This document shows positions 1 through 57,660 of a stretch of DNA of 64,000 bases, piece after piece (position 1 is the stretch's first letter; each line of letters opens with the position of its first letter). The stretch lies in IMG/VR virus record IMGVR_UViG_3300019880_000001, positions 19,914 through 83,913 of that record, one strand, 5' to 3'. The notes beneath the pieces were generated by a model that ran no database searches, was not told the DNA's origin, and worked only from the letters and a program-made list of their open reading frames with translations. The stretch comes from a virus. The position numbers and the translations under genes were made by a program.

Positions 1-272
1 CGTTCGTCGCTGAGTTCGCCCTCGAACCTCTCTCGTTGCTTGTCGAGCTTGTCACCGAGGCTTGCGGTTACAGCTTCTTTGGAGGCTTGCAGCGCTTCGT
101 ACTGCTTCTTCTGTTCTTCGATGCGAGCCTCGAGCGCGCCGACTAGCTTCGCGTCTTTCCCGCGCATCATGCCCCACACCGCGCCGACGCCGGCGACCGC
201 CATCGTGAGCAAGTATGGCCCTATTCCATGGGTCAGGTCTTGCGCCACGTTCGGTGGAGGCGTGTCGATCAC
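1..272 (-). CDS. Membrane protein with one TM and coiled coil (holin-like?), truncated by the window edge
   Basis: GTG at 272 overlaps the stop of the upstream gene; reads VIDTPPPNVAQDLTHGIGPYLLTMAVAGVGAVWGMMRGKDAKLVGALEARIEEQKKQYE..., open to position 1. Confidence 0.6.
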   Translation of the reverse strand, partial: MIDTPPPNVAQDLTHGIGPYLLTMAVAGVGAVWGMMRGKDAKLVGALEARIEEQKKQYEALQASKEAVTASLGDKLDKQRERFEGELSDE

Positions 273-742
273 TCCGGTTCAGGCTCCGGTAACGTTGCTG
301 GGGGGATGGCTGGAGCGCTGATCCCAAGGTGCTGCTCGATCATGGCGAGCCTGATGCTTAGCGCTTGCTGCTCTGTCGAAAGCTTGTGCGAGCGGTTCCG
401 AAGCTGACGAAGCCACTTGGCGTGTTCGTCGCCGCGTTTCGCCTCGTCACGAATCAGTTTGGCGTGCTCGTCTCCACGTTGTGTTTCTCGTTGGTAGTGC
501 TCCGCGATCATGCTTCTGATGTCGTGCACCGCCAACAAGATGCGCTCGTCTCGCTTGTCGATCTGTCCGATCAAGTCCTGACGAAAGTGACCGAAAACTT
601 CGAGTACGTCTTCCACGCTGGGGGATTTGATCGGTTGGGTCTTCCCGAAACTTTCGGGAGCAGGAACTCCGGCCTCAGTTGTGCGCTCCCACGGCGGCGG
701 AACCATCTCTTCGATCGAGTCGGGGACGTGTTCGTCGCTCAT
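269..742 (-). CDS. Hypothetical coiled-coil protein
   Basis: MSDEHVPD... start; ATGA overlap with the upstream gene; internal repeat RGDEHAK x2. Confidence 0.65.
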   Translation of the reverse strand: MSDEHVPDSIEEMVPPPWERTTEAGVPAPESFGKTQPIKSPSVEDVLEVFGHFRQDLIGQIDKRDERILLAVHDIRSMIAEHYQRETQRGDEHAKLIRDEAKRGDEHAKWLRQLRNRSHKLSTEQQALSIRLAMIEQHLGISAPAIPPATLPEPEPE

Positions 743-1575
743 GTGTGGCTCGGCTCGATCTGCTGCTTGCGGGGTACGTAATAGACGATGAGCGCGCCAA
801 CAACCAGCGCGGCCGTGCCTGCGGCGGCGATCCCAGCCCAGTGGAGCGTTTTGGGTAACCCCTTCGCGGTTTCGGTGAGCCCTACGGTAGTGGCTTCTAC
901 CATATCGTGTACTTCTCCGAGCAGCTCGCCTGCGGAGTAGCCGATGAGTTCGATGACACCCTTCGTGGAGATGTAGGACCCCTCGATGCGCGCGCGGATC
1001 TCCTGTTGGAGGCTGAACGATGGCACGTCCGGGAGATGCAACGGGATGTTCCAGAGCTTCGAGAGCGCGATCAGCTCTTGCGTGTAGGGGCCGCCGACGC
1101 GCATGACGACGTCTTGGTGCCACTTGAGCATCGACGACGCGCCGGCAAGGAGATCGGCGCTCGACTTGTCCTTCCAGGCATTCCACTGCGTCAGGATGCC
1201 GCCCGGGTCCGTGTTGCTCGTACGAATGCGCGCGAGCGACAACGAGGAGCAAAACTCCTGGTTCGCGCTCGGGGGGATCTGAGCTTTGGTGAAGATGCCC
1301 GGCGGACACTGTTTCGTGTCCGGTAGGCTCTCGAGGAGGTCGGCCAAGTTCCGCCAGAGCGCGAGCTGCGCTCCGATGTACGGGTCCCACTCTTGCCGGT
1401 ACGCGAGCAAATCTCCGACGTCGCCGACCCCGACGCCACTCAGCCCCGAGTTGAGCGACGGATCGAGCGCGATGACGCGACGGCCGCCGTAGTAGATCCC
1501 CTCTGGTCGGATGATGGGGCACTCTCCGAGCCCCAACACCGGACGGCCACCGAAGGAAACGGTTTCGTTGATCAT
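739..1575 (-). CDS. Putative virion membrane protein, C-terminal TM anchor
   Basis: Starts MINETVSFGGRPVLGLGE; ends WAGIAAAGTAALVVGALIVYYVPRK; translational coupling at both ends. Confidence 0.7.
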   Translation of the reverse strand: MINETVSFGGRPVLGLGECPIIRPEGIYYGGRRVIALDPSLNSGLSGVGVGDVGDLLAYRQEWDPYIGAQLALWRNLADLLESLPDTKQCPPGIFTKAQIPPSANQEFCSSLSLARIRTSNTDPGGILTQWNAWKDKSSADLLAGASSMLKWHQDVVMRVGGPYTQELIALSKLWNIPLHLPDVPSFSLQQEIRARIEGSYISTKGVIELIGYSAGELLGEVHDMVEATTVGLTETAKGLPKTLHWAGIAAAGTAALVVGALIVYYVPRKQQIEPSHT

Positions 1576-1754
1576 CGTTTTTTCTTCTTTCGAACCTTGT
1601 GCGCGACCTCTTCGATGGCCCATCCGGCTGCCGCGCTCACAACGCTCGATGCGATCAACATCGGCCACGGTGACGCCGTCTTCGTGGTCGGCGGTGAAGG
1701 ATCGGAGCTTTCACCGAAACCGACTACGGGATGGCCGCCGTAGTGGACGATCAT
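1572..1754 (-). CDS. Small membrane protein with basic tail
   Basis: MIVHYGGHPVVGFGES..., TM, then KVRKKKKR; ATGA overlaps. Confidence 0.65.
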   Translation of the reverse strand: MIVHYGGHPVVGFGESSDPSPPTTKTASPWPMLIASSVVSAAAGWAIEEVAHKVRKKKKR

Positions 1755-4129: not shown

Positions 4130-4803
4130 CGTACGGCGCTCGTGACATCATTCGGCGTCAACGCGCCGATTGCGCGTGCGAGACACCCGCACGCGCACCC
4201 GCTCGTGCGTTCGTTCGCGAAAGCGGCGGACGGATCGTACGTCCGCGCGCGTTCATGCGCGCAGAGGTCTTCGAGCGCGCCAAGACTCACCGGCCGCGCG
4301 ACGCCGAGCCGATCGTGCTCGCAGGCAAGCCCGGCTCGAAGTGTCGGCCGTTCCTCAAGGTCGAGAAGGACGCCGAGAAGTTCGCAGCGTGCAACGCGCT
4401 CGCCGACGAGCTCGGGCCCCTCAACGAGCCCGAGAAGATGTACCAGATCATCGAAGACGCCATCGGAGATGAGGTCAACGAAGTCTTCGGCGTTCTGATG
4501 CTCGACATCCACTTGCGTTTCAAGGGTCTCGCCGAGACCGGGCGCGGAGAGCCGTCGAGCGTGATGGCGCCTTTGAAGCCGACGCTTCAGATGGCGCTCA
4601 TCTCCGGTGCAGATTCGATCGTGTTGTGGCACGTGCACCCCTCCGGGATCGAAGCCGAGCCCAGCGACGCGGACAAGGAAACCACAGAAGCGTTCGCCGA
4701 AGCGTGCGAGGCCATCGACCTGCCGCTACTGGATCACTTGATCATCGGCGGTGACATTCGGAACCGTAGCTACTTCAGTTTCGCAGAGGACGGCTTACTA
4801 TGA
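4126..4803 (+). CDS. radC: JAB/MPN domain protein, RadC family
   Basis: E.FGVLMLD...HVHPSG..AEPSDAD...LLDHLII, intact JAMM metal-binding motif. Confidence 0.85.
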   Translation: MTYGARDIIRRQRADCACETPARAPARAFVRESGGRIVRPRAFMRAEVFERAKTHRPRDAEPIVLAGKPGSKCRPFLKVEKDAEKFAACNALADELGPLNEPEKMYQIIEDAIGDEVNEVFGVLMLDIHLRFKGLAETGRGEPSSVMAPLKPTLQMALISGADSIVLWHVHPSGIEAEPSDADKETTEAFAEACEAIDLPLLDHLIIGGDIRNRSYFSFAEDGLL

Positions 4804-5210
4804 ACGCGCCCGCCAACAATCAGAGGCGCTTGCCGGCGCCGAACCCGAACTCACCCGTGCTCACTCGGATGATTTCCGATCCGTTCTTCAACGAGCAGCC
4901 CGAAGCGATCACCTGGACGCTCTATGCAGATCACCCGCTCGCGACGGGCATGAAGGTGGTACGGATGTTCGTCAATCACGACGGTGTCGAAGTGTATTCG
5001 GCGCCCGCAGATCCGTCGAGACCATGCCTGCGCAACATCATTCCGATCTCGAAGGTGCGTCTCACCGAAGAATCGATGCCGTTCACCCTCTTCGCCGAAG
5101 AGCTGACCGACGCCGAAACAGAAGAAGACGATGACGACGACGACGAAGATGATCCGGAACCGGAGCCCGGTGAGAGCTCAACGGTCACGTCGGGTACCAC
5201 GTCGTCTTGA
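4800..5210 (+). CDS. Hypothetical protein with acidic C-terminus
   Basis: 136 aa, poly-D/E tail, ATGA overlap. Confidence 0.65.
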   Translation: MNAPANNQRRLPAPNPNSPVLTRMISDPFFNEQPEAITWTLYADHPLATGMKVVRMFVNHDGVEVYSAPADPSRPCLRNIIPISKVRLTEESMPFTLFAEELTDAETEEDDDDDDEDDPEPEPGESSTVTSGTTSS

Positions 5211-5227
5211 AAGCAGGACTTGTCAGA

Positions 5228-6847
5228 ATGTCTCGCGGCAGTAGAAAACGCGAGCAGGACGCAAGCGAGCGCCACTCGGGTGCAGCCGGCATACCCGCTC
5301 AAGAAGACGAAGCCGACATCTTGGAAGAGGTGGGCGGCGAACGCGACGAAGGCGGAGAGCTCATGGTAGACGAGGCGTCTGTCGTGGCCGTAGGCGCGGT
5401 CGACGCCGACAGCGTGCGCACCAATCGGCGCATGGACGCTGTCGTGAAGAAGAAGCGTGGAGGCGAGAAGCACGTCACGTTCAACACCGACGACTTGCTC
5501 ACCATGTACGAGAGCTTGATCAAGGTGTGGGCTCCGAACACGCTCGACATCAGTGTCAGGCGCATGACCGGCTCCGCAGTCACGCGGGTGATCACCAGCC
5601 GTCCTCGATCTGGGGTGGAGCTCTACGAAGCGATCAGGGCCATGCACGGCCTGTGCGAGGAGTCCGAGTACGAGGTCAAGTTCCTCGACACCAACCGCAA
5701 AATGTATCGCGGCACCGGCCGAATCACGATGCCGGACACGCGCGTTACATCGCCGCAAGGACAATCGCCCATGTACCCGCCGAACGGTGCGCCTCTAGGA
5801 TACCCTCCGCCGCAAACGTACCCGCCTCAGCAGGTGCCTCAAGCGGCCCCCGTAGGCGCTCCGCCCGGATCTGATCCGATGGCGATGATGCACCAGATGT
5901 TTCAACTGTTCCAACAGATGCAAGCGTCGGTGCAACCGCAGTCGCCGTTCCAAGCACCGCAAATGCCGGCAACCGCGCCGGTGTCTTCACCGCAAGTCGG
6001 ACCCATGGATCCGATGGCGATGATGAATCAGATGTTTCAGATGTTCCAGCAAATGCAGGGGCAGCAACCCGTGCACGCAGCTCCTCAGCCCGTAGCGGCG
6101 CCGGCGCCTGCTCCGTCGCCGCCAGGAGGGATCGATCAGTTGGCGATGCTGGAGCGGTGCTTCGAGCTCTTCCAGAAAATGCAGCCACCGCCGGCGCCGG
6201 TTAGCCGTGGGCCGTTCCAGCGCGACCCACGGGCTCCTTACTACCCGCAAGGAGAACGGGCGGGTGGCCCAGAGCGTACCGGCGCACCGCAGCAACACCA
6301 ACCGCCCCAGCGCCCTCCGTCGATGGTCGAGCAGTTCCGCGAATCGATCGGCATCGTGCGTACAGCACGGAGCATGCTCGACGAAATGGAAGGGCTGATG
6401 CCCGGAAGCTCCCAAGAGGCACCTACGGTGTCGGGCTTGGGCGACGACGATGAGGATAGCCCGATCAAGATCATCGACACCGGCGCCGGAAAGATCGTCG
6501 TCAACAAGCACGACGGCGGCATGCGCCTCTGGGAATCCGGCTTCGCGAACCTGCCCGACATCCTCAAGTGGGGTGGCGAGCAGATCCAGAAGATCAACAA
6601 GACGAACTCCGAGCGCCAACTGCAACAGCAGCAGCCACGACAGCAACTCCCGCCCGGCTACGTCGAGGTGCACCCCGGATACCGCCCACCGCCCGGGTAC
6701 GTGGCGGTCGCAGTCGATCAAGAGCAACCGCAGCAAGAGGAGAGGCTTCCTCCGCCGCCCACGAACTTGCCTCCGCCGATCCATTCGTCGCCATCGAGGG
6801 AAGCGTGGGGCGAGCCAGTGATCACCGATCAAGTCGAGAACGAGTAG
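5228..6847 (+). CDS. Pro/Gln-rich protein with DPMAMMxQMFQ repeats
   Basis: Long ORF; repeats DPMAMMHQMFQLFQQMQ, DPMAMMNQMFQMFQQMQ, DQLAMLERCFELFQKMQ; PPGYV x2; start uncertain. Confidence 0.7.
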   Translation: MSRGSRKREQDASERHSGAAGIPAQEDEADILEEVGGERDEGGELMVDEASVVAVGAVDADSVRTNRRMDAVVKKKRGGEKHVTFNTDDLLTMYESLIKVWAPNTLDISVRRMTGSAVTRVITSRPRSGVELYEAIRAMHGLCEESEYEVKFLDTNRKMYRGTGRITMPDTRVTSPQGQSPMYPPNGAPLGYPPPQTYPPQQVPQAAPVGAPPGSDPMAMMHQMFQLFQQMQASVQPQSPFQAPQMPATAPVSSPQVGPMDPMAMMNQMFQMFQQMQGQQPVHAAPQPVAAPAPAPSPPGGIDQLAMLERCFELFQKMQPPPAPVSRGPFQRDPRAPYYPQGERAGGPERTGAPQQHQPPQRPPSMVEQFRESIGIVRTARSMLDEMEGLMPGSSQEAPTVSGLGDDDEDSPIKIIDTGAGKIVVNKHDGGMRLWESGFANLPDILKWGGEQIQKINKTNSERQLQQQQPRQQLPPGYVEVHPGYRPPPGYVAVAVDQEQPQQEERLPPPPTNLPPPIHSSPSREAWGEPVITDQVENE

Positions 6848-7101: not shown

Positions 7102-7107
7102 TTGGGG

Positions 7108-8334
7108 ATGCGGGAGTACGTAGTTCAGGCCGGCGACAGTCCCGCGAGCATCGCCGCGAAAGACGAGATGGCCGGTTGCCCCAAGTGTGCGATCGATCTC
7201 GTCCGCGCGAATCCCCACAAGAAACCTGTCGTTCACCCGAACGGATTCGCCTCGTTCGAGAGCTTGAGGGCCGGTGAGAAGCTCAGGTTGCCCGAGAAGT
7301 GGTTCAACGGCGATTTGGAGTCTAGACCGCGCGCTTACTTCGCAGCGCTCCCCCACTACGATGGGGTGACCCCCGGCGTCGGCGCACCCAACGTGCTCAA
7401 CGATTACGCCGCGCTCGACGCCGCCGCTGCGAGAGTAGGATCTCTCGCCGCTCTCGGTGATCGAGAGTTCGCTGCCGCCGTCAACAGCGCCGCTGACGCT
7501 GTGGATGCGTCCGTTCGAGAGATAGGCGAAGCGGAAACCGTACCTACCGTCTACGCCGCCCCGTACGCGAGAGATGTGCGCGCAGCGACAGCTCAGGCGA
7601 GGCAGTACAACAACATGGTGCTCGACTCGGCTATCGCCGCCGGCGACACACAAGAGGCGTTCCAAGCACGTACCGAAATCTTGAAGAAGCTCTCGGGCGC
7701 GCTCGGGTCGGCACGCCTCGCGTTGCAATCGTTCTACGGAGACGCCGGGGCGGGCGGCGCCGAGCGACCGGCACCGCCACCGCCTGTACCTGAGATACAA
7801 GTGGATATCGGTCCGGCGACGATCGATCCGAAGCCGGTACCGCCGGCCACCGTCGTCACTTCGGCGCAAGCCGCAGCAGCCGCCATGAGCGCGGACGCCA
7901 ACTACTGCGCGTCGGTTTCTCGGCCTGGGAGCGCAGTCAATTCGGCCGTTCATGCGTTCAAAACGGCTTGGAACTCCTCGAATCCGAGCTCGCCGGTGCC
8001 CATCAACACCAGCACCTACGAGCAGGCAACGGCCGATGCGATCAGGCTCGCGATCGGAGCCGCTCCTACCGCGTGCGGCGCCGGCGCGGCGACTGCGGTC
8101 CCGTCCCCCGCCGCGCCTCCTCTAGTAGTGCCGCCACAGCCGCAAGCGGCGCGTGGGATCGGCTTTGCCGGCATCCTGGGGCTTGGGTTGCTCGGCGCCG
8201 GCGCTGTCGGCGGCGCGATCTACTACGCCACCAAAGCGAAGCCCTCTACTCGTCGTCGTGTGCGCCGAGTAAGCCCACGACGACGATCTGGACAACGCGA
8301 CACCATTGGCCCCTGGAAGAAGGATCCGTCGTGA
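7108..8334 (+). CDS. LysM-domain membrane-anchored protein
   Basis: YVVQAGDSPASIA...LVRANP...LRAGEKLRLP (LysM); Cys-bounded domain shared with 15742-17220; C-terminal TM and basic tail. Confidence 0.8.
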   Translation: MREYVVQAGDSPASIAAKDEMAGCPKCAIDLVRANPHKKPVVHPNGFASFESLRAGEKLRLPEKWFNGDLESRPRAYFAALPHYDGVTPGVGAPNVLNDYAALDAAAARVGSLAALGDREFAAAVNSAADAVDASVREIGEAETVPTVYAAPYARDVRAATAQARQYNNMVLDSAIAAGDTQEAFQARTEILKKLSGALGSARLALQSFYGDAGAGGAERPAPPPPVPEIQVDIGPATIDPKPVPPATVVTSAQAAAAAMSADANYCASVSRPGSAVNSAVHAFKTAWNSSNPSSPVPINTSTYEQATADAIRLAIGAAPTACGAGAATAVPSPAAPPLVVPPQPQAARGIGFAGILGLGLLGAGAVGGAIYYATKAKPSTRRRVRRVSPRRRSGQRDTIGPWKKDPS

Positions 8335-8987
8335 TCGATAAGCCTGTAGTGGGCGTGCAGACTGACGCGAGACCGCACCCGGCTGGAGGAAAAGGAGCTC
8401 GGCTCTCGTTGAACGAGGTCGCCGAGCGCGCGTGGAAAGCGCGGATGAGCCCGCGCCTCCGAGCGTGGGTCACGCAGGTGCTCGACAAGGCCGGCGTGTC
8501 GACCGGCGGGCGCCGTCAGAAGGCACAGGCAGTACTGGATGCCTTCCGAAAAAAGGTGCCGTACATCGCCGATCCTGTGATGGGGGAGTTCATGGCGACG
8601 CCGGAGCAGTCGCTTTGCTTGGACGAAGGTGGACTCTGTTTCGTGGGCGGTGATTGCGACGACCACTCGATCGGTCTCGCCGCCGCGATGATGTCGATCG
8701 GCATCCCCGCCATGATCATCGGCGCGAGCTACAGAGATCCGATCGATGTTCCGACGCACGTGTTCATGGCGTTCCAGGACGACTTCAAGGACTGGGTGCG
8801 CATGGACGGTACGACGAAGCAGGCGGTGGGCCGCGTGTCTCCGAGCCGAAAAGAGTTCTGGGTCGAGCCCGGAGCCACGGCGAAGGATAGTGGCGAAGGC
8901 GACTTCGTGGGCATGAGCGGAGCGTCGTCAGGAATGCTCGCGGCGCCGGTATCTCTGTCCGATCTGCGCTACCCGGGCATACGTTAG
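8331..8987 (+). CDS. Transglutaminase-like (papain-fold) Cys-His-Asp protein, putative protease
   Basis: YIADP..EF..TP, GDCDD, THVF, WVRMDGT motifs. Confidence 0.8.
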   Translation: MIDKPVVGVQTDARPHPAGGKGARLSLNEVAERAWKARMSPRLRAWVTQVLDKAGVSTGGRRQKAQAVLDAFRKKVPYIADPVMGEFMATPEQSLCLDEGGLCFVGGDCDDHSIGLAAAMMSIGIPAMIIGASYRDPIDVPTHVFMAFQDDFKDWVRMDGTTKQAVGRVSPSRKEFWVEPGATAKDSGEGDFVGMSGASSGMLAAPVSLSDLRYPGIR

Positions 8988-12182: not shown

Positions 12183-12200
12183 ACAACGGACCGAGTACGA

Positions 12201-46540: not shown

Positions 46541-46550
46541 CGTCGGGCTC

Positions 46551-47613: not shown

Positions 47614-47787
47614 CGTTTCCACTCCCGTCGTCAAACCCCTCGCACCTGCCGCAAGCACACCCGCCTTCGGTGTGCTTGCGTCGCTCGCACAAGCATCGTT
47701 CGCAGACGTCGCCGCCCGAAGGCGCAGCTCGCTCGTCTATTTCGACGAGATCGTCGTCTTCGAGCAGCGATCGTCTACGACGCGGGC

Positions 47788-48426: not shown

Positions 48427-48439
48427 GCTGATTTACTTT

Positions 48440-49219
48440 CTACTTTCGTTGCTGGTTCGGACGTTTGGTTTCGATCTTCGGAGAAGAGCCAGACTTGCTG
48501 ACCTTCTCGAATTCTTCGTGCAGCACACCGACGTCGGCCTCGAGCTCGTGTGTCCCTGGGAGATCCAGGCAGCTCGGTCCGTAGACACCGATCGGATTGA
48601 TGAAAAAGCTCCGCTTCGCCTTGTCCTTCGTACTCGGAGCCATGAAGACGATGTTGGCGAAGTTGCCGGGGATCTCTTTGCGCGCGGCGCCTCCGAACAG
48701 CGGAGCGACCCCTTGCCCGGTCTTTTCGGTCTGACCGTCGATGAGCCCCGTGCCGGTTTCGATGTAGTGGCTGACGACGTAGAAGTGCGCCTTGAAGTCA
48801 AACCCGCGCACTAGAATGTTGATCAGACGTTTCCGGTACTCGCGCCAGAACCGGCGACCGTCTGCTTCGCCCTTGTTGTTGCGCGTCTGATCTTCGAGTG
48901 CGACCTCTAGCCAACTCCCGTAGAGATTGAAGTCGTCCACAACGACCCACTTGTACGTGCCGTCTCTGCACCCTCGACGCGCTTCTTTCATCGCGTCTTC
49001 CATCTGCGTTTCGTCGCGGATGATGTCGTACTTGAACTTTTTCGATCTACGAGATGCGTCCAGCAGCCCTGTCGCCTTGCCGCAATTGAGCACGTAGCCC
49101 ATTCCAAACGCTTGAGCTGCGCTCGCTACGATCGACGTGGACTTCCCGATGTGAGGGTCCCCCAGAAAGAGGACGCGATCGTACGGCTCGCGCTCCAGCG
49201 CGGACGCATCCTGCGGCAT
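48440..49219 (-). CDS. AAA_24/Sak4-like P-loop protein
   Basis: LGDPHIGKST, VVVDDF, D.R..W, VVSH, P.FGG. Confidence 0.75.
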   Translation of the reverse strand: MPQDASALEREPYDRVLFLGDPHIGKSTSIVASAAQAFGMGYVLNCGKATGLLDASRRSKKFKYDIIRDETQMEDAMKEARRGCRDGTYKWVVVDDFNLYGSWLEVALEDQTRNNKGEADGRRFWREYRKRLINILVRGFDFKAHFYVVSHYIETGTGLIDGQTEKTGQGVAPLFGGAARKEIPGNFANIVFMAPSTKDKAKRSFFINPIGVYGPSCLDLPGTHELEADVGVLHEEFEKVSKSGSSPKIETKRPNQQRK

Positions 49220-49529
49220 ATGTCAGACGCTTTCTCTTGCCCGCTGTCACCTTCGAGCGGTGACCCTTCGACGTTGGGCAGGGATCAGCTTTTACCGAAC
49301 TGAAAACGAAAGTGCAACCCCCAAAAGGGAACGGCAGCCCCCGTCGAAAGAGGCTGCCGTCGGGAGCGATTCGGGAGGATCAGCTCTGAGGGGAAAGATA
49401 AAGCTTTCGGTGCGTGTTGTCCAGCGTGGCACCGAGCACCAGACGACCGACCGTCCAGTGATCGTGCATCTTCCGCAGAGAACACGGCCTTCGCGCTTCA
49501 ACGCCTCAGAACAGAAGATCGATTTTGCC

Positions 49530-50027
49530 TCACCTGAGCGCGCCGGTTTTGCCCGGCTGGCTCTCGTCGTAGTCAGCGGGCGGCGCTTCGAGCGCCTCGC
49601 GCTTCTCGTGCTGCCGGCGCCGACACCGATCGATGACTTCCGAATTTTGAATACGTTTGAGCTCCGCCTCGAACTCCAAATCGGCGTCGACCTTGAGTGC
49701 TGCGGCCATCGCGTACAAGGTCACCATAGTGCCCGCGATCTCTTGTGCGGGTCTCCCGGCAGGGCGGCCCATCACGTAGTCGACGAGCCGGTGAAGCGTC
49801 GCGGTGTCGGCGCCACACGCTTGAGCCAGCTCGAGAGCTTCTTCGGCGGTACGTAGAGAACGCTCCAGCGTGTCGTCGGCTTCCTTGTCGGTAAATACTT
49901 CTTTCACCCACCTGGTGATGCGATCTTGTTTGGAAAGCGCCTCGAGCGCAGCCTCGAAAAGCGCTAAATCGCCGAAAAGACCAGTCACACGGTGCCGTAG
50001 ACGCTGTTTCAATATCTCGACGATCAC
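49530..50027 (-). CDS. MazG-like nucleotide pyrophosphohydrolase
   Basis: W...F...ERSLR.AEEALEL.Q...GRP.G.P.QEIAG..VTL. Confidence 0.6.
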   Translation of the reverse strand: MIVEILKQRLRHRVTGLFGDLALFEAALEALSKQDRITRWVKEVFTDKEADDTLERSLRTAEEALELAQACGADTATLHRLVDYVMGRPAGRPAQEIAGTMVTLYAMAAALKVDADLEFEAELKRIQNSEVIDRCRRRQHEKREALEAPPADYDESQPGKTGALR

Positions 50028-50314
50028 GCGAGCCCCACTTTCTGTTTTCCGAAGATGAGATCGTAGCCTTCCCTGTACGCGGGGGTCGCGACCTGCGCTG
50101 GCCCGGATTTGTAGACGCTGGTGAGCGTGTGCCACCCGTCTTCGCACGCTTCGTCCACGTGCGCGACCTCCGAGCCGGGAGAGAGCGGGGCGCCGTCGCG
50201 CATCGGCATGATCGCCACTTGCCTGACCTCACCGTCCGGAGACCGGCGTGCGGCCACGTGAACGCCGGGGGCGATCTCGGGTCCGAACGCGATCTTGTCG
50301 TTTTCGTCTTTCAT
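50024..50314 (-). CDS. Hypothetical protein
   Basis: GPAQVATPAYREGYDLIFG C-terminal motif; coupled. Confidence 0.6.
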   Translation of the reverse strand: MKDENDKIAFGPEIAPGVHVAARRSPDGEVRQVAIMPMRDGAPLSPGSEVAHVDEACEDGWHTLTSVYKSGPAQVATPAYREGYDLIFGKQKVGLA

Positions 50315-50345
50315 TGAGTGCCTTCCGCGCTAACTCGAGCGCAGC

Positions 50346-50927
50346 TCACGAATCAGAGCTGCCAGCTCGTGCCAATAGATGTTCTGTGGAGGCCGCTCCT
50401 TGAAGATCATCGCGAGCCTCGGGTACTTCGACCAAACGATCGTTTCCTTCAAGTGCCGCGCCGCTTCCGTCTTCGCCGCCTCCTCCGCGTCCTTCATGCG
50501 CCTCCGGATTGTAGATTGCAAAGCGCCGTCGCTGCTGACGGTACGTCAGCGAACGGAAGCGCTCGTTGTCGCCGCGACACGCATCGTCGAGCGTGTCGAT
50601 ATTGTCGAGGAGCGCCCACAGCCCATCGCGTTGCTTGCGTAGCTCGTCGATCGTCTTCGTTGAATTCGCTTTCAGCGAAGGAGGCACCAACATCGAACGA
50701 CGCTTCAAGCAGTCGGAGATGTCGTCAGCCATCACTTCTATGCCGGCGTTGAAACCGTCTCGATAAGCCGCCTGAGTGGCTGCAATCCAAGAATCGGTCA
50801 GCCCCCTTCTCTTCAACTCGAACTCTTCGGTGATGCGAACGAACTCGCTCTTCATCGAAAGGCGTTCGGCCTCGAGCGCGCGGGCGACGGCGGCGTCGCG
50901 TTCTTCTTTCAGGTCTCGGTACCTCAT
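50346..50927 (-). CDS. Hypothetical coiled-coil protein
   Basis: ATGA overlap with the nuclease stop; C-terminal part may not be real. Confidence 0.45.
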   Translation of the reverse strand: MRYRDLKEERDAAVARALEAERLSMKSEFVRITEEFELKRRGLTDSWIAATQAAYRDGFNAGIEVMADDISDCLKRRSMLVPPSLKANSTKTIDELRKQRDGLWALLDNIDTLDDACRGDNERFRSLTYRQQRRRFAIYNPEAHEGRGGGGEDGSGAALEGNDRLVEVPEARDDLQGAASTEHLLARAGSSDS

Positions 50928-52123
50928 TTTTGGGCCACCAACATCTCGCGCGTCGCTTCTCGGATAACACCTTTTTTCCGGAGCTGCATGAGCAACTTCT
51001 CGCCGGCGACTTTTCCGAGGGCCTCGATGACGCTCTTCTTCGAAAGTGTCTCGTAGGTCTGCTCTTGGATCTCGAGCACCTTTCCGTCTTTCGTCTCGAT
51101 GACCGATCCGAGACGCACGAGACGCTTCAACTCGGCAGAGCCGGCTTTCTCGAGCTCACGGAACCGCTTCAACATGTCGTAGAGCGCGCCGGCACGTACC
51201 TCGAGCATCCCCTCCGGCGGGGGCTCGGTCGGAAGCGCGCAGAGCGCGTTCGGGTCGACGGGCTCCAGCATGAGCTTGTTCGCGGCCTCGGTGAGCACCG
51301 CCGCGCTTTCGACGAGGAGGTACGCCGCAGCGGCAGGGCAACCGATACGCGCCGGGCAGCGCTTGCAGTACTCGTCGGGGCGAAGAAAGCCACCTCCGAT
51401 GCGATCGAACGCGGCGTGCAGCTCTTTTGCGTGAGCTCGCTGGTCTTCGATCTCGTACGGCTCCGCGTAGACGATAGGGAGCCCTTTCCGATCTGCATGG
51501 AAGATCCCGAGCTCGCCATGTAGCGACCCAGCAGCGAGCCCGAGCGTACGGAGCTGCGATACCGTCGAAGGTCGAGCGAACCGCGCGTTCTCGTCGTTCG
51601 CGATCCAACTTTCGAACAACCCCGTCTTGTGATCAATGACGACCCGCCGCTTTCGGTTGGCGTTGCGCGCGATGAGATCGACGGTACCCGGCAACTCATC
51701 GTCGGCGACAGCGTACACGTGGTCCTCATCGTGTGCCTCGATGGTGCGCGCCTTCCAGGTACCGTCCGATTTAGCACTCACCGCGTACGCCGTTTCAATC
51801 TCAGCGATCTCTAGCTTCTCGCGGGTGAGCCAGTTGCGGAGCACCTTCACGCTGCTCTTGACGTGTCCGGCGAGCTCCTCGCGCGCTTCCTTGACGTCGT
51901 AGCGCTTGGCGGCGCGGTCGATCTCCTTCGCGTAGGCACCGGCGCTCTTCTCGAGCGGCTTCTTCACGGGCGAGCGAAGGCACGCGGCGATTACCTGATG
52001 AAACGCCGATCCGTACCTCGCTGGTTCGCCGGGCTCATCGGGTTCGGCTACGAGCCCGGGGTCGAACGGGCGCGGGCACAGAAGAAGCAGTTCGGTTTTC
52101 GACGCGGACGGTTGAAGACCCAT
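50924..52123 (-). CDS. Cas4-like PD-(D/E)XK nuclease
   Basis: CP, GSAFH, GTVDLI, IDHKTG, QL, CKRCPARIGCP. Confidence 0.8.
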   Translation of the reverse strand: MGLQPSASKTELLLLCPRPFDPGLVAEPDEPGEPARYGSAFHQVIAACLRSPVKKPLEKSAGAYAKEIDRAAKRYDVKEAREELAGHVKSSVKVLRNWLTREKLEIAEIETAYAVSAKSDGTWKARTIEAHDEDHVYAVADDELPGTVDLIARNANRKRRVVIDHKTGLFESWIANDENARFARPSTVSQLRTLGLAAGSLHGELGIFHADRKGLPIVYAEPYEIEDQRAHAKELHAAFDRIGGGFLRPDEYCKRCPARIGCPAAAAYLLVESAAVLTEAANKLMLEPVDPNALCALPTEPPPEGMLEVRAGALYDMLKRFRELEKAGSAELKRLVRLGSVIETKDGKVLEIQEQTYETLSKKSVIEALGKVAGEKLLMQLRKKGVIREATREMLVAQK

Positions 52124-52558
52124 CTCACCCTACCTTTCGAGATTCGAGCGCGATGCAACGATGCTCTGGGGCCCGCGCGCCACACGTGACGCATTGCCCG
52201 ATCTTCTCTCGAAGCTCTCTCGAAAGCGGCGTTGTTCTAGGCTGTCGACGGTAACGCTCTCGGTTGGCAGTACGTTGACGTTCCAACTCATTGACCGTGA
52301 GCGCACGGTAGGGACGGTGCGGCAAGCAGGTGAAATTTTCTGGCGGAGCCCTGTCTGAAAATGGGCAGCGATGCTCCGAAGCCAACGAACCGCACAGCTC
52401 ACAGCGATAGACGGATCCGCCGTTCCCGCGTCGCACAGTGAACGAGTCTCGCTCGGCGTACGAACAAAAGTAGCTCGACTGTTGTTGGGCTTCGCCGAAC
52501 AGCTCGAGGATTCCGACTTGGAGATCGATCAATAAAGTGCTCCTTCGACGGCCACCGG

Positions 52559-52671
52559 ACCTCCAACCCTCCAACCGAAATTCGAGACGAGGCACCCCCC
52601 ACTCATTTCCCAGTACCCTTCTGATCACTACCCCCACTAGGACCCCTATTTTTGGTTGGAGGTTTGGAGGT
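52559..52671. repeat. Inverted repeat of doubled CCTCCAA units; candidate replication origin
   Basis: CCTCCAACCCTCCAACC 52560-52576 vs GGTTGGAGGTTTGGAGG 52654-52670 (1 mismatch), straddling the helicase 3' end. Confidence 0.6.
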
Positions 52672-53922
52672 AGTAGAAGAGTGCTCTTTGGGAGCTTCGG
52701 CGGGAAAATAGCGGCGGACGTCGTCCGTGCCCCGCACAATCCTCGTCCAGCCGATTGCCCGGAGCGCCTTGCCGGCTAGGGCCTGCGCTGCCCGGTTCTG
52801 CTTGTCCTTGGTCACGTCCACGGCGTTGGTGAGCAGGTCGGTGATGGTTACCCCGCCCTTCCGATAGAGCGCCCGATTCATTGACAGGTACTCCTTGAAG
52901 TGAGTTTCCCACGGCTCGGGTTCTCGCCGCTCTTCAGCTTCGGCCGCCGCCGAAGCGAGCAGCTTCTCGTCCCGCATGTGCCACTTCTCGTTTTTTCTGT
53001 ACCGAGCGAACGCCTCCGCCCAAATCTGATCGCGCTCTTCACGTACGATCTTGAGATCGATCTTGCTGGCGATCAGAACAGGATTGAACCGCCTAGCGCC
53101 GGTCGTGTCATTCAAGTACCCGGCGCCGTTCGGGTTGACGGTTCCGGCGAATACGTTCTGCCTAGGGAAGTCGATCGTCGTTTTCCCATACGAGGGGCGG
53201 TAGCTGTCCTTCACCGACGAGATGAAAGCTTTGACTCGCGCAAGGTCGGCGCTGTTGAGAGCATCGAGCTCACTGAACTCGACGATCCACTTTCTTCTAA
53301 GCGCCTGGTAGCCGTCCTTGCCTCCAATGTTGAAGACCGTATCCAAAAACCAATCGTCGGATGCGAGGATGCGGAGGAAAGTAGACTTGTGAGCGCCTTG
53401 CGCTCCTTCGAGAATGAGTACCGTGTCGACCTGCACACCAGGCCGCATCACACGCGCGACAGCACCTAGGAAAAAGTTCTTGGTGACGGCTCGAGTGTAA
53501 AGTGTGTCAGGGGCCCCTCCGACACGAATGAGCAAGTCGTCAACGCGCGTTTTATTGTCCCACTTAGGAATCTCGTTCAAGTAGTCGCGCACCGGATGGA
53601 TCGACCACCTTTCCGAAACGAGCTGCACCGCCTCGTCGACGACGGACGAGTAGAAAGAACACTGGTACTCGTTCGAGAGCCACACGGCGGCACGCGCCGA
53701 ATCACTCTGCGTCCAGTCTCCGACGTCCTTGTTTTCGGGCGCCAGATCGTCGGACCATGGCGGCAACTTCTTCTTGACGATCACGCCGGCGAACGCATCG
53801 AACGCGATGACGTTGTGCCACTCCTTTCGGTGCGTGAGGATCGCGACGGCGTTCGCCAAACACGGCAAGTACATGCCCTGCTTGTTCTTGAGGAGACACG
53901 TATCCCAGCTCGCGGTAGGCAA
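52603..53922 (-). CDS. VapE/VirE-family SF3-like helicase
   Basis: HPVRDYL..W D..R; LILEGAQGAHKST; WIVEFSEL; KAFISS..D.YRPSYG; FAGTVN; YLND.TG.RRF. Confidence 0.9.
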   Translation of the reverse strand: MPTASWDTCLLKNKQGMYLPCLANAVAILTHRKEWHNVIAFDAFAGVIVKKKLPPWSDDLAPENKDVGDWTQSDSARAAVWLSNEYQCSFYSSVVDEAVQLVSERWSIHPVRDYLNEIPKWDNKTRVDDLLIRVGGAPDTLYTRAVTKNFFLGAVARVMRPGVQVDTVLILEGAQGAHKSTFLRILASDDWFLDTVFNIGGKDGYQALRRKWIVEFSELDALNSADLARVKAFISSVKDSYRPSYGKTTIDFPRQNVFAGTVNPNGAGYLNDTTGARRFNPVLIASKIDLKIVREERDQIWAEAFARYRKNEKWHMRDEKLLASAAAEAEERREPEPWETHFKEYLSMNRALYRKGGVTITDLLTNAVDVTKDKQNRAAQALAGKALRAIGWTRIVRGTDDVRRYFPAEAPKEHSSTTSKPPTKNRGPSGGSDQKGTGK

Positions 53923-53978
53923 TGGCGGGCCTTCTTTTCGACGGTTCGACGAGTTTTCAGTTTCGACGGTGAGGGGCG

Positions 53979-54043
53979 ATGCTAGCCTTCGAGGAGGCCG
54001 CCCGTCAAGGGGCCTTGTCGGACATCGTCGGTGAGACTAGATT
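53979..54043. promoter_or_regulatory. Back-to-back sigma70-type promoters
   Basis: (-) TTGACG 54008-54003, N18, TAGCAT; (+) TTGTCG 54015-54020, N17, TAGATT, 7 nt before ATG 54051. Confidence 0.6.
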
Positions 54044-54050
54044 CGCCGTC

Positions 54051-54230
54051 ATGGAAACAAAAGTCGACGTGCGGCTGTCTCGCGAGTTGCGGAAAGCCCT
54101 CGAACGTGAGCGGTTGCGCATGAGCAAAGCGCTCGGCTCCGAGGTGAAGACGAGCTTCGTCGTACGCTCGCTTCTCGAGCGCGCTCTACGCCCCAAGCGT
54201 CGAACCTCCGCGATCGAGCGCGCAGCGTGA
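54051..54230 (+). CDS. Ribbon-helix-helix-like regulator
   Basis: KVDVRLSRELRKALE...TSFVVRSLLERAL. Confidence 0.7.
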   Translation: METKVDVRLSRELRKALERERLRMSKALGSEVKTSFVVRSLLERALRPKRRTSAIERAA

Positions 54231-54765
54231 GATCACCCAGGCTCACTTCGCTGTCGGAACTCTTCGACACGCCGAGCGGGGTGTTCAAGTGGTCCACCGA
54301 ACTCAACGTAGACGTCGAGAAACTATTCGGAGAAAAGAAGCGTCCGTCAACGAGACGCAGTCCCACCGCCGGCAACCGCGGGCAAGGAAGCAACTGGCTG
54401 AACCGCGCAACGAGATTGCGTATCTACGAACGAGACGGCTGGCGATGCGTGTGGTGCTGCTGTGAGGTCGAGCGTCCGACGCTCCCCGAAGACGGGATCC
54501 TCGTAGCTGGTGGCGCATTCGCCAAGCTTCGATCGATCACGTCGTCTCTCGCTCGCGCGGAGGCTCGAACCGCCCGAGTAACCTCATCACGTGCTGCGCA
54601 GAGTGCAACGCGAAACGAGGCCGCCTCAGTGTTCCGAAGTTCTCGAAAATGATCTGCGACGCGACCGGCGTGAACCACGACGGCTTCTACCTCTCACCGT
54701 CGAAAATAGTACGGCGTGTCCGCGCCGCGCAAAAACGAAAGCTACCTTCAAGGAGAACCAGTTGA
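54227..54765 (+). pseudogene. HNH endonuclease split by a frameshift
   Basis: Frame 1 RLRIYERDGWRCVWC; the -1 frame continues ASIDHVVSRSRGGSNRPSNLITCCAECNAKR to TGA 54763-54765, which overlaps the next ATG. Confidence 0.75.
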
Positions 54766-54995
54766 TGCGCGATGAACTAGTCGGTCGTTTCGTGTTCGTC
54801 GGTACCAAACCGGGGACCGTCATGTCGGTCACACCAGGAACCCCGGCAACAGACAAGACGCCCGCAACGCCGGCGATGATCAAGGTGAAGCTGCACGACG
54901 TGCCGACCAAGATGCGCGACGGCAACGAGATCGTAGAAATAGAACGCGCGTCGTCCGCCTGGCGCTTGAAGTACCCAGGAGAGAAACGAGCATGA
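54765..54995 (+). CDS. Small hypothetical protein
   Basis: RBS AAGGAG; MRDELVGRFVFVG. Confidence 0.55.
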   Translation: MRDELVGRFVFVGTKPGTVMSVTPGTPATDKTPATPAMIKVKLHDVPTKMRDGNEIVEIERASSAWRLKYPGEKRA

Positions 54996-55228
54996 AAGAT
55001 CACTGGATGGCCGTCGCAGGGATCATTTTGCTGTTCGTGATCGCCGAACTCCTTCGTCCCTACCGGCTCCGGGTAGAAGCCAGCGCTCGAAAGTGGGAGC
55101 GAGACAGGTACGAGAAGATGGCCCGACGAGAAGAAGAGAAGGCAGCTCTCGAAGAGAACCGCCCCCACCGTCACATCTACCTGGACACCGCCGCGTTCTA
55201 CCGGGACCTCGCGAAGAACGTACGATGA
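54992..55228 (+). CDS. Small membrane protein
   Basis: N-terminal TM; ATGA overlap. Confidence 0.55.
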   Translation: MKDHWMAVAGIILLFVIAELLRPYRLRVEASARKWERDRYEKMARREEEKAALEENRPHRHIYLDTAAFYRDLAKNVR

Positions 55229-55269
55229 CCGAAAAACTTTCACGTAACTAAAAAGTGAGGAATAGAAAA

Positions 55270-56424
55270 ATGAAACCCATCAAAATACTGTACATCGCGC
55301 TCATCGCGTCGTTGGTTGGATGCGCACCATCCGAAACCACCGACACGCTTACTGCCACAAGGAGCGCGCTCGAGACAGACGCCTCCCCACCGATCACGGT
55401 GTCCGTGTCGCCGAACGCGGCTACCGTTCAACTAGGGACTGACTTTCAATTTTCAGCTACCGTCACGAACGCACAAGACACTTCCGTTGTCTGGTCTATC
55501 TTGGAGAGCCCGGGGTGCGGGACGATTTCGTCATCCGGCTTGTACTCAGCTCCGACTAGCGCACGCAGCCCATGCCACGTCGTAGCTACGTCTAACCAAG
55601 ACCCGTCGAAGAGCGACTCGGCAGGTATCACGATGTCTTCGGGAAACGGGATGAGCTCGGGGTGCGGGCTCACCGGGATGCGAACCGGCACGTTCCACGT
55701 AGCCACGAGAGACGGTAACGCCGTTCGCCGTGATTTCATGGTCGTGGTTCCTGCGACGTACAACCCGACAGTCCCCCTCGATCTCACGTTCGTGTACCAC
55801 GGCTTGAACCAGAACGAAGCCATCGCTGCGAGCTGGGGCGTACAAGACACGCCGGGTGCCGCTAACGCGAGCATCTTCGTATTCCCGCAAGGGCGCCAAG
55901 TCGGCACCGACGGCATCGGTTGGGACGACTCCTGCGGCGGGCGCGACATGCCCTTCTTCGACCACATGATGTCGATCCTCGAGAGTAGCTACTGCATCAA
56001 CACCCAGAAAATATTCGCCGCCGGGTTCTCTTGGGGCTGCGATCAGACCGTAGCGCTCTCGTGCTGTCGCGGTGACGTCATTCGCGCGGTCGGAGCGGCG
56101 TCGTGCTCGTACGCCTTCAACGATCCGAGCGACTACACGACGTACATGAACCTCACGTGCCCCACCGCCACCGACGCGGCCTACCGCTTCACGCACGATT
56201 CAAACTCCGATGGCGCGTACACGCTCCAGCAGTTTCAATCTACGAGCGCGCTGATGCGATCCTTCAATTCGTGCGCGGCGACGGCCACACCGACGTCTCC
56301 GAGTCCGTGCGTGTCCTACGACACGTGCGCTCATCCAGTCGTCGAGTGCGCTTACCCCAGTCTCGGGCACCAGCTCCCGTCAGGCTGGGGCGCTGATACC
56401 TGGAACTTCTTCAACAGCCTCTAG
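55270..56424 (+). CDS. Lipoprotein: Ig-like domain plus alpha/beta-hydrolase (PHB-depolymerase/feruloyl-esterase-like)
   Basis: Lipobox LVGC; VSVSPNAATV..QFSATV; VYHG, FPQG, GFSWG nucleophile elbow, GHQLP. Confidence 0.8.
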   Translation: MKPIKILYIALIASLVGCAPSETTDTLTATRSALETDASPPITVSVSPNAATVQLGTDFQFSATVTNAQDTSVVWSILESPGCGTISSSGLYSAPTSARSPCHVVATSNQDPSKSDSAGITMSSGNGMSSGCGLTGMRTGTFHVATRDGNAVRRDFMVVVPATYNPTVPLDLTFVYHGLNQNEAIAASWGVQDTPGAANASIFVFPQGRQVGTDGIGWDDSCGGRDMPFFDHMMSILESSYCINTQKIFAAGFSWGCDQTVALSCCRGDVIRAVGAASCSYAFNDPSDYTTYMNLTCPTATDAAYRFTHDSNSDGAYTLQQFQSTSALMRSFNSCAATATPTSPSPCVSYDTCAHPVVECAYPSLGHQLPSGWGADTWNFFNSL

Positions 56425-56499
56425 CAGACACGAACGGCGCGAGCAGGTGTCGTTCTGCTCGCGCCGTTCTCCGACCCGAAGGAGAAAAGGGAAACCACG

Positions 56500-57660
56500 T
56501 TGACAGCGTCTTCAACACTCTCGGTGACTCTCTGGCGTTCGTTCTCACGAGGCCGACGCGAGGAGAGAACCTGGAGCTCGTTCATCGACACGTTCGTTCG
56601 AGAGCCCGAGGTCGTGCGCGACAAGCGGAAGGTCGCCGGCTTCTCGCTCGCGTCCTTCCTCGAGAACCGGCGGTCTCTACCTCGAGTCGAGCGGGTCCAC
56701 GCGCTCATTCTCGACTTCGACGAGGGTGACACGACGGTGCGTCAGGCTGAGACGCTACTGCCCGGCGTGCACGGCGTGACGTACACGACGTTCAGACACA
56801 CGATCGAATATCCGAAGCTGCGGGTCATCTTTCCGTTCGACAGGCCCGTCGACGCGGACGAGTACGCGCGGATCTGGACTTGGGTCGCCGACAAGATCAC
56901 GAAGACGAAACGGATCCTCGACGAGTCGACGAGGGACGCGAGCCGATTCTGGTACCTGCCGAGCCACCCACCGGGGGCGACGTACGAGTGGAAAGAGATC
57001 GGCGGGAAAGCGCTCGATGTGGCGCGGGCGTTGAAGGAATCGAAATCCCCCCACTTCCGTTCTTTCCTGGTGAAATCTGCCAAGGCGCCCGCGAAACCCA
57101 AGGGAAAAGAACGGGTTGTGTGTGATCCTTCTGATCAGACTTTCTTTGGACGTGCGTTCGAACGCGCCAACATGTCCTTTGGTCTTCTCGATAATGGCGC
57201 TCTAGCTGTCGCTTGTCCGTGGTCCACGCAACACACCGGCGGCGTAGACGGGGATTCATCGACGGTAGTTTTTCCGGCGACGACTGCCGCAGGCTGGGGT
57301 CATTTTCATTGCTCTCACGCACATTGTGTTGAACGAACGACGTTCGATCTCCTCGACGTCTTGCCCCCCAAAGCGCTTGAAGAGGCTCGGCGAGAACACG
57401 GTTCGGGTTTGGTTCGCGCAAAGATTCGAGCCGGCTTTACGCAACACTTCGAAGCGAAGGTGGGCTTCGATGCACTCGATCGTTTCGTTCTTCGATGTTA
57501 CCCGAACGGCAACGGGGCCCCTCTCGTTTGGACTGTGAAGATTGGAAGCCGAGCGCATGTTGAGGGGCTCGATGCCCAGCCTCTTGTGGCTCTTCGTGGG
57601 CGCATGGTCGATCTTGCGTTACGGGGACGTGAGATCACTTGGGGGCGTTTCGCATGTTGA
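56500..57660 (+). CDS. Primase-like (AEP-type) protein with Zn-binding domain
   Basis: LILDFD, YTTFRH..PKLRVIFP, D..TRD.SRFWYLP; CPW..H...FHCSHAHC. Confidence 0.75.
   Translation: MTASSTLSVTLWRSFSRGRREERTWSSFIDTFVREPEVVRDKRKVAGFSLASFLENRRSLPRVERVHALILDFDEGDTTVRQAETLLPGVHGVTYTTFRHTIEYPKLRVIFPFDRPVDADEYARIWTWVADKITKTKRILDESTRDASRFWYLPSHPPGATYEWKEIGGKALDVARALKESKSPHFRSFLVKSAKAPAKPKGKERVVCDPSDQTFFGRAFERANMSFGLLDNGALAVACPWSTQHTGGVDGDSSTVVFPATTAAGWGHFHCSHAHCVERTTFDLLDVLPPKALEEARREHGSGLVRAKIRAGFTQHFEAKVGFDALDRFVLRCYPNGNGAPLVWTVKIGSRAHVEGLDAQPLVALRGRMVDLALRGREITWGRFAC

Follow-up and report, generated by a model that had tools for sequence, protein, structure and literature searches.

The DNA analyzed here, referred to as the window, is a stretch of 64,000 nucleotides corresponding to bases 19914–83913 of a single 83,913-base viral contig (IMG/VR record IMGVR_UViG_3300019880_000001), whose sequence originates from a soil metagenome. 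The contig probably constitutes the entire genome of a virus with a tailless jelly-roll particle, one of a large lineage of bacterial viruses that occur in soil and freshwater and have not been cultivated. On balance, we also favor the view that this lineage is new and that its members are large jelly-roll viruses lacking tails, in which a protamine-like protein anchored in the membrane would condense the DNA. Two of the three most conserved proteins adopt capsid-type jelly-roll folds in predicted structures, the genes kept across the lineage form a compact morphogenesis set and not a tailed-phage set, and no conserved protein is recognizable by its sequence as a P-loop ATPase. An undescribed lineage of large jelly-roll-type viruses with a membrane-protein-rich virion module had been proposed in a first-pass annotation of the window, and the present analysis supports that proposal.

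Genome completeness

The last ~125 bases of the contig repeat positions 8–132 of its start, and CheckV places its completeness at 100%; the contig is therefore the whole genome, which is ~83.8 kilobases (kb) long and circular or terminally redundant. The earlier description of an element of at least 64 kb is thereby corrected to a complete 83.9-kb contig. The GC content is 62%, and gene calling self-trained on codon usage yielded 131 genes at a coding density of 91%. No tRNAs were identified within the window, and no RNA sequencing runs are listed as carrying the sequence. The 19.9 kb outside the window, which the first-pass annotation had not seen and had recommended for inspection, carry replication-type genes (a Dda-like helicase, an SNF2 helicase, a D12 Dam methylase, and a DUF6011 protein) and contain no terminase, portal, or capsid gene.

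Conserved core and distribution of the lineage

Four complete genomes were compared all against all: the present one, G001 (109 kb), G003 (110 kb), and G004 (79.6 kb), the last of which has direct terminal repeats and a capsid homolog with 44% identity. Ten families are present in all four, namely a RadC/JAB protein, a 60-amino-acid (aa) protein, a LysM tail-anchored family, a transglutaminase-like protein, a basic protein, three capsid candidates of 438, 204, and 296 aa, a 501-aa Thr/Ala-rich protein, and a 182-aa protein.

The 438-aa family was used to gauge the extent of the lineage. A word search returned 423 homologs, many of them on contigs of 60–160 kb, with identities of 72–86% among the 120 listed, and an exhaustive HMMER search returned 173 clusters at 50% identity. 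Within IMG/VR, which classes the relatives as viruses, 31 loci carry the family; divergent members occur on contigs of 51–56 kb, and two distant representatives of the family found no match in IMG/VR. Searches with tblastn of the 438-aa protein and a 546-aa protein of the same block against 50,697 deposited phage records gave no match, and no paper on the lineage was found in the literature. The nearest ESM Atlas clusters of two core proteins are mostly labeled Uroviricota; in surveys, these genomes would accordingly be tallied among the tailed phages, despite their lack of hallmark genes.

Capsid candidates

The three capsid candidates, which correspond to the beta-rich capsid candidates noted in the first pass, are encoded together in the interval 10866–14363 and are interrupted in this genome by one further gene:

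10866–12182, + strand, 438-aa jelly-roll protein, large capsid protein candidate (AlphaFold2 model, re-ranked structural matches)
12261–12860, + strand, HNH/endonuclease VII-like gene between the capsid genes (phrog_1035, E = 4e-12; no homolog in G001, G003, or G004)
12857–13471, + strand, 204-aa beta-type protein, small capsid protein candidate (gene order; present in all four genomes)
13473–14363, + strand, 296-aa single jelly-roll protein, vertex (penton) candidate (model of moderate confidence)

The HNH/endonuclease VII-like gene is probably a homing endonuclease insertion confined to this genome. At related loci, homologs of the 204-aa and then the 296-aa protein lie directly downstream of the 438-aa homolog (33 matches each). 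Codon bias is strongest in the 438-aa gene, and the top genes of the genome by this measure are the members of the trio, which are also far more conserved than the fibers. Comparisons by hhalign within the trio gave no support for paralogy (probabilities of 0.8% and 0.5%).

The AlphaFold2 model of the 438-aa protein, built from a 76-sequence alignment, is rich in beta strands (predicted local distance difference test score, pLDDT, 88; predicted TM-score, pTM, 0.85). The Foldseek list for this model is led by papillomavirus L1, a non-significant match. Re-ranked candidates comprise P3 of PRD1 and PR772 (149–159 residues aligned, 6.0–6.4), the capsid protein of STIV (6.3), vaccinia D13 (5.7), SPV1 (5.5), the faustovirus capsid protein (4.9), the FLiP capsid protein (4.8), and VP17 of P23-77 (4.6). 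The alignments are spread over model residues ~30–430, yet cover only ~110–160 residues. Because those to P3 involve its first barrel only (chain residues 19–253) while spanning the whole model, the predicted fold would be a single barrel, to which both termini contribute strands and into which a large domain is inserted, and not a tandem pair.

The re-ranked list for the 296-aa model contains almost exclusively viral single jelly-roll capsid proteins: HHIV-2 chain b and, below it, the STIV turret protein, HCIV-1, SPV1, and IBDV VP2. We infer that HHIV-2 chain b is the penton protein VP9: the chain begins at residue 39, the capsid subunits of that structure are labeled A–X and a, and the penton protein is reported to be disordered over its first 40 residues (PMC6414509). 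Both the 438-aa and the 296-aa models are beta-sandwiches, and neither gave HK97 matches.

For the 204-aa protein, the nearest named ESM Atlas clusters carry PM2 P2_N/P2_C, at a score of only 0.76, and hhalign detected no similarity between the family and PM2 P2; hhalign comparisons with VP16 and VP17 of P23-77 were negative as well. A complex prediction of the 438-aa and 204-aa proteins, made with alignments, scored 0.00 and carries no weight either way. Profile searches of four core families against PDB sequences gave chance-level matches only, and the 501-aa protein searched alone did no better.

A basic protein, probably membrane-anchored

One further core gene precedes the trio:

9205–10728, + strand, 507-aa basic protein, candidate membrane-anchored DNA-condensing protein

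It is composed of an Arg/Lys-rich N-terminal part of ~200 aa (up to 28 Arg and Lys per 50 residues), Gly-rich hydrophobic helices, and three DSPYPDA-QALR repeats. The distant relative G004 keeps this layout, a basic region followed by hydrophobic segments.

Tailed-phage hallmarks and the composition of the virion block

The virion block occupies ~3.2–32.7 kb of the window on the + strand, and its large open reading frames (ORFs) were scanned against Pfam and PHROG. No match to terminase, portal, HK97 capsid, tail tube, tape measure, or baseplate families was obtained among them. Six-frame profile searches of the whole 83.9-kb genome, for which controls in known genomes were positive, detected no Terminase_6N, TerL_ATPase, Phage_portal, Phage_capsid, or FtsK_SpoIIIE, and the five relatives searched with Terminase_6N, Phage_capsid, and Phage_portal gave no match either. 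The claim that the block has no recognizable terminase, portal, HK97 capsid, tape measure, or baseplate is thus upheld. Its extension to tail genes in general holds in part: tube, tape-measure, and baseplate families gave no match, whereas a collagen-repeat protein and a lytic transglycosylase (SLT) domain match tail-protein PHROGs. We read these two matches as domain-level resemblances of a kind common to fiber and lysis modules.

An extremely divergent tailed phage, whose HK97 capsid, portal, and terminase escape detection and whose jelly-rolls serve as decoration, cement, or fiber proteins, would account for several of these features. The gene order (a large, a protease-like, a basic or scaffold-like, and an abundant protein) resembles a head module, the collagen fiber and the SLT enzyme are of tail-protein kinds, the replication genes are of tailed-phage type, the 501-aa and 204-aa proteins leave room for a hidden fold, and jelly-roll cement and turret proteins of tailed viruses figure among the weak structural matches. 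A terminase, however, needs a P-loop, and no conserved protein has one. The 546-aa protein is of low complexity and disordered, no reading frame of six genomes gives a hallmark match, 76 diverse members of the 438-aa family are all without a Pfam or PHROG match, no ORF in the genome reaches tape-measure size, and the three most conserved and most codon-biased genes are precisely the jelly-roll candidates. A hidden tailed phage is therefore considered unlikely.

In a crude hydropathy scan, hydrophobic transmembrane (TM)-like segments were found in 16 of the 40 block genes and in 13 of the 91 genes elsewhere, with similar ratios in the relatives, so that the enrichment extends to all four genomes; the count of more than 15 TM proteins given in the first pass is borne out. 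Likewise, the TM-anchored lytic transglycosylase and the collagen spike named there correspond to an SLT protein with an N-terminal hydrophobic segment (27396–28100) and a collagen-repeat protein (21169–22293). A GroES-like gene, also named there, was not found: Cpn10 had no match anywhere in the genome at E ≤ 1.

The abundance of membrane proteins, together with a membrane-anchored basic protein and a glycosyltransferase within the block, would fit an enveloped or pleomorphic virion, or of a plasmid-like element, in which the jelly-rolls would be surface or spike proteins. The lack of a packaging motor is in keeping with such an unconventional, non-icosahedral arrangement, and ParB in G004 and the tyrosine recombinase in the present genome suggest plasmid-like maintenance. 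We nevertheless regard it as improbable. The conservation of the trio, far above that of the fibers, is expected of a shell and not of host-recognition proteins, the best structural matches are capsid and penton proteins rather than adhesins, and the direct terminal repeats of G004, the terminal overlap of the present contig, and the virus class assigned to the relatives in IMG/VR weigh against it as well.

Packaging motor

One gene of the genome could be mistaken for a packaging enzyme:

34067–35830, − strand, HerA/FtsK-type ATPase, accessory gene (Pfam DUF87, AAA_10, TrwB; phrog_2666, labeled "terminase large subunit")

This is the only PHROG "terminase" match in the genome. The gene is absent from G001, G003, and G004, and its nearest deposited homolog, 29.5% identical over 96% of the length, is a "hera helicase" of a tailed phage equipped with terminase, portal, and capsid genes of its own. 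Because it is not conserved, the ATPase was rejected as the packaging motor of the lineage. A Walker A motif, even in the relaxed form G[KR][ST], is absent from all 11 core proteins. A Walker A protein shared by the relatives was also considered as a packaging enzyme and rejected, being a Sak4-like AAA_24 protein.

A PRD1-type virus, with the 438-aa protein as a true double jelly-roll and the HerA/FtsK ATPase as its packaging enzyme, would be in line with the PRD1/PR772 P3 and STIV matches at the top of the re-ranked list, with the family matches of the ATPase, and with a membrane-protein-rich block, SLT enzyme, and collagen spike resembling those of PRD1, but it is quite improbable given that three complete relatives lack the ATPase, that the closest deposited homolog of the enzyme does not package DNA, that the P3 alignments indicate one barrel with an insertion, and that the 84-kb genome (against ~15 kb) encodes neither PolB nor a GroES-like protein. 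The PRD1 analogy drawn in the first-pass annotation accordingly fails as a statement of membership: a conserved FtsK/HerA ATPase, PolB, a GroES-like gene, and a clear double jelly-roll are all missing.

Weighing the tailless jelly-roll reading

Several points weigh against a tailless jelly-roll virus. Foldseek searches of PDB and BFVD with the 438-aa and 296-aa models returned nothing at E ≤ 0.001, and the 296-aa model is of moderate confidence (pLDDT 67, pTM 0.68). The models cover only these two proteins, so the 204-aa and 501-aa core proteins might harbor a hidden fold. Jelly-roll domains also occur in tail fibers and cement proteins of tailed phages. As for tail-like genes, the collagen protein matches PHROG tail-fiber families at E = 4e-36, and the SLT domain resembles those in baseplate-hub and tape-measure proteins (phrog_196, phrog_4928). 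No precedent for enclosing an 84-kb genome without a motor was found in the literature, and a membrane, the particle shape, and protein copy numbers lie beyond the reach of sequence. A tailless jelly-roll virus is still the reading we favor. The more ambitious claim of a new high-rank group of bacterial viruses (family to kingdom), defined by a jelly-roll shell, an internal membrane, genomes of 60–125 kb, protamine-like condensation, and no ATP-driven motor, is put forward only tentatively.

Proposed virion organization

The membrane, the roles of individual proteins, and the assembly route are proposed here by analogy with HHIV-2, P23-77, and SPV1. The facets would be built from the 438-aa protein, with its inserted upper domain, and the 204-aa protein, while the 296-aa protein would occupy the fivefold vertices. 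Beneath the shell, a lipid membrane would hold many small TM proteins and the tail-anchored LysM/peptidoglycan (PG)-binding proteins, and on its inner face the DNA would be condensed by the membrane-anchored Arg-rich protein. The particle might be assembled around this nucleoprotein, as in SPV1, instead of being filled by a motor, and its proteins could be processed by the transglutaminase-like cysteine protease. Spikes or fibers sharing the N-terminal tag GRGRY..YP would dock in the vertices through this common N-terminus and bind the host, and the membrane-bound SLT and PG-binding proteins would open the cell wall at entry. The PolA, Sak4, Cas4, and VapE arm appears to have been borrowed from the tailed-phage gene pool.

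Further genes of the virion block

The remaining features of the block are as follows:

4255–4803, + strand, RadC/JAB-domain protein, core gene at the head of the virion block (Pfam RadC, E = 6e-25; in all four genomes)
5207–6847, + strand, 546-aa Q/P/M-rich low-complexity protein, core gene, candidate scaffold or matrix protein (no Pfam or PHROG match)
7102–8334, + strand, 410-aa protein with a LysM-like N-terminus, an Ala-rich middle, a C-terminal TM helix (at 352), and a basic tail
8331–8987, + strand, transglutaminase-core (papain-like) protein, core gene, candidate maturation protease (Pfam Transglut_core, E = 1e-5; in all four genomes)
14351–15742, + strand, four candidate virion membrane proteins: small TM proteins of 78, 77, and 72 aa, and one of 237 aa whose TM segment is C-terminal (hydropathy scan)
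15742–17220, + strand, LysM and PG_binding_1 protein, candidate cell-wall-binding entry protein (PG_binding_1, E = 5e-15; LysM, E = 8e-5)
18172–22293, + strand, three GRGRY..YP-tagged proteins (391, 409, and 374 aa), candidate spikes or fibers (regular expression for the tag)
22290–23021, + strand, Laminin_G_3/ConA-like lectin protein (Pfam)
23018–24139, − strand, GT1 glycosyltransferase (Pfam)
25572–27392, + strand, 606-aa GRGRY-tagged protein, candidate spike (tag; no Pfam or PHROG match)
27396–28100, + strand, SLT lytic transglycosylase (Pfam SLT, E = 9e-8; N-terminal hydrophobic segment at 7)
29313–29873, − strand, 186-aa GRGRY-tagged protein (tag)

In the middle of the 546-aa protein, a Pro/Gln-rich region that seems to be disordered contains three Met/Gln-rich repeats (PMAMM-QMFQ-FQ-MQ). 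The ESM Atlas model of the protein is disordered (pLDDT 0.47) and has no informative neighbor, and no P-loop is present. Homologs are clear in G001, G002, and G003 and weak in G004 (26% identity).

The 410-aa protein belongs to the same family as the LysM and PG_binding_1 protein at 15742–17220, and this family is found in all four genomes. The latter protein additionally has a collagen-like stretch and a C-terminal TM segment at 429, and it matches PHROG endolysin families. Among the small membrane proteins, the 237-aa protein is conserved in G001 and G003.

The G001 counterpart of the transglutaminase-like protein (50898–52529, − strand) is 543 aa long owing to ~325 extra residues placed precisely at the GGDC motif. 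Beginning at C-FPEG... and ending at ...VSN-C, the insert is intein-like, and its location suggests that the motif is functionally essential.

The GRGRY..YP tag is found at the N-terminus of five proteins in this genome (391, 409, 374, 606, and 186 aa), of one in G003, and of none in G001 or G004. The tagged 374-aa protein (21169–22293) is the collagen-like one (Pfam Collagen, E = 3e-16). An untagged 111-aa ORF (20587–20922) lies among the three clustered tagged genes.

Replication arm and accessory genes

Beyond the virion block, the window carries two more core genes, a recombinase, and a replication arm:

36486–37556, − strand, tyrosine recombinase, Cre/Xer-like (Pfam Phage_integrase, E = 5e-8)
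37764–39269, + strand, 501-aa Thr/Ala/Pro-rich protein, core gene (no Pfam family among 33 members, no PDB match)
39938–40486, − strand, 182-aa core gene (in all four genomes)
40483–57660, replication and recombination arm with ThyX, UDG-PolA, an RNase_T exonuclease, DUF3310, AAA_24 (Sak4-like), PD-(D/E)XK (Cas4-like), VapE, and a primase-like gene (Pfam, PHROG)

The replication set listed in the first pass (UDG-PolA, Sak4-like AAA_24, Cas4-like PD-(D/E)XK, VapE, Thy1, and DUF3310) was recovered in full by Pfam, and its tailed-phage character was confirmed, PolA being 22–24% identical to PolA of Gordonia and Streptomyces phages and VapE 36–43% identical to proteins of Pseudomonas and Ralstonia phages. 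The PolA, VapE, Sak4-like, and Cas4-like genes and most other genes of the arm gave no match in tblastn searches of the three complete relatives, and what the arm has in common with G001 is limited to a few small ORFs. The relatives share a different set, comprising a helicase, AAA_24, a nuclease, an exonuclease, and ParB. As the arm differs in this way, it is an exchangeable module, and what defines the lineage is its set of morphogenesis genes.

The tyrosine recombinase is 66–68% identical in G001 and G003 and absent in G004. The 501-aa protein contains an internal duplication, with two copies of the pattern F-x-V-T-x-G-S-x-x-VPTT ... YTVA ... YTG. Its homolog adjoins that of the 546-aa protein in G003 and G004; in the present genome the two genes are 30 kb apart, and the 501-aa gene lies beside the recombinase.

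Two side observations were made. At the left edge of the window (contig 19697–20655, − strand), two overlapping small ORFs of 157 and 162 aa belong to no Pfam family. The first contains the Walker A motif APESFGKT, and together the two are about as long as the AAA_24 ATPase (~330 aa) encoded by the relatives, to which no similarity was detected. A split ATPase at this position was considered and rejected, both ORFs being without a Pfam family. In the replication-side region, a 389-aa lipoprotein-like protein (55255–56424) with a lipobox, not conserved in the relatives, aligns weakly (E = 9e-4) with a PHROG "major tail protein" family over the last ~95 positions of the latter; this match probably reflects a common domain or chance.

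Host and lifestyle

A bacterial host is indicated by the PG-binding and SLT domains and by the lipoprotein signals. The capsid gene was encountered on short contigs binned into one Polyangiaceae metagenome-assembled genome (MAG), in two different copies, and into one Binatia MAG. The two Polyangiaceae homologs, 55% and 36% identical, lie on separate contigs (C825:10957–12183 and C466:1145–2275), and they represent either two viruses of the lineage binned with the MAG or a hint of the host. A sample of 700 other genomes from the two phyla (400 of the first and 300 of the second) yielded no further copy of the capsid gene, and there is therefore no evidence of prophages and no firm host. The description of the virus as temperate is thus not supported, although a tyrosine recombinase is present. 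Nor is the myxobacterial host proposed with it: its basis is the short contigs in the single Polyangiaceae MAG, and the Binatia MAG has such contigs too.

A separate observation concerns the 501-aa protein, a 617-aa homolog of which (P0404, 69% identical) is encoded on an NCBI/ENA contig of 1,549,209 bases. This locus may be an integrated copy in a bacterial chromosome.

Significance and comparison with known viruses

The genome is several times larger than that of any described tailless bacterial virus of the jelly-roll type, and in the literature large genomes within a jelly-roll architecture are known only from eukaryotic viruses. If the proposed reading is correct, a widespread soil and freshwater lineage of 60–125 kb would break the size rule for prokaryotic jelly-roll viruses. 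It would provide a large-genome bacterial counterpart of the SPV1 strategy, so that large jelly-roll genomes would not be confined to eukaryotic hosts, and the enclosure of 84 kb of DNA with neither a terminase nor an FtsK/HerA motor would call for an explanation. Discussion of how Helvetiavirae, Bamfordvirae, and SPV1-like viruses arose would also gain a missing piece, and the mislabeling of such genomes as tailed phages would stand as a warning for viromics.

Members of Helvetiavirae (Sphaerolipoviridae, Simuloviridae, and Matshushitaviridae, including HHIV-2, HCIV-1, SH1, and P23-77) have a gene layout comparable to the one proposed here: two neighboring genes specify beta-barrel capsid proteins, one larger and one smaller, next comes a single jelly-roll vertex protein, and many small membrane proteins follow. 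In P23-77, the region downstream of the capsid genes additionally codes for a transglycosylase and a lysozyme of the virion. Helvetiaviruses encode FtsK/HerA packaging ATPases (PMC8812541). In these viruses the ATPase gene is located next to the capsid genes, whereas none is conserved in the present lineage. Their genomes measure 17–31 kb, compared with 84 kb here and 60–125 kb in the relatives; their hosts are haloarchaea and Thermus rather than soil bacteria; and the lineage has no sequence or profile similarity to VP16 or VP17.

Tectiviridae (PRD1) and the other prokaryotic double jelly-roll viruses (PM2 of Corticoviridae, STIV of Turriviridae, and FLiP) share the membrane-protein-rich block, the transglycosylase, and the collagen-like spike. 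Genomes of prokaryotic double jelly-roll viruses are smaller than 20 kb (PMC8812541). Most of these viruses have an FtsK/HerA ATPase, and PRD1 replicates with a protein-primed PolB, in contrast to the UDG-PolA of the present genome, which also lacks a GroES-like gene. The 438-aa model aligns to a single barrel only, and the weak Atlas lead from the 204-aa protein to P2 of PM2 is not accompanied by profile similarity. Since the lineage lacks the packaging ATPase that defines both PRD1-like viruses and helvetiaviruses, it is filed in neither group.

An analogy, of function only, can be drawn with Adenoviridae, which have an Arg-rich core protein, a cysteine protease, and fibers that dock on the penton through a short N-terminal motif. 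These are eukaryotic viruses with a double jelly-roll hexon and a packaging ATPase.

The nearest analogue for the workings of the particle is Portogloboviridae (SPV1). SPV1 and FLiP have no packaging ATPase (PMC8812541), and SPV1 contains a nucleoprotein core under its membrane. It is a virus of an archaeal hyperthermophile with a genome of ~20 kb and a soluble nucleocapsid protein, VP1, whereas the lineage described here has its basic domain joined to hydrophobic helices in one protein, and the present genome is about four times as large. With these differences taken into account, the basic membrane-anchored protein would fit a nucleoprotein core of the SPV1 kind.

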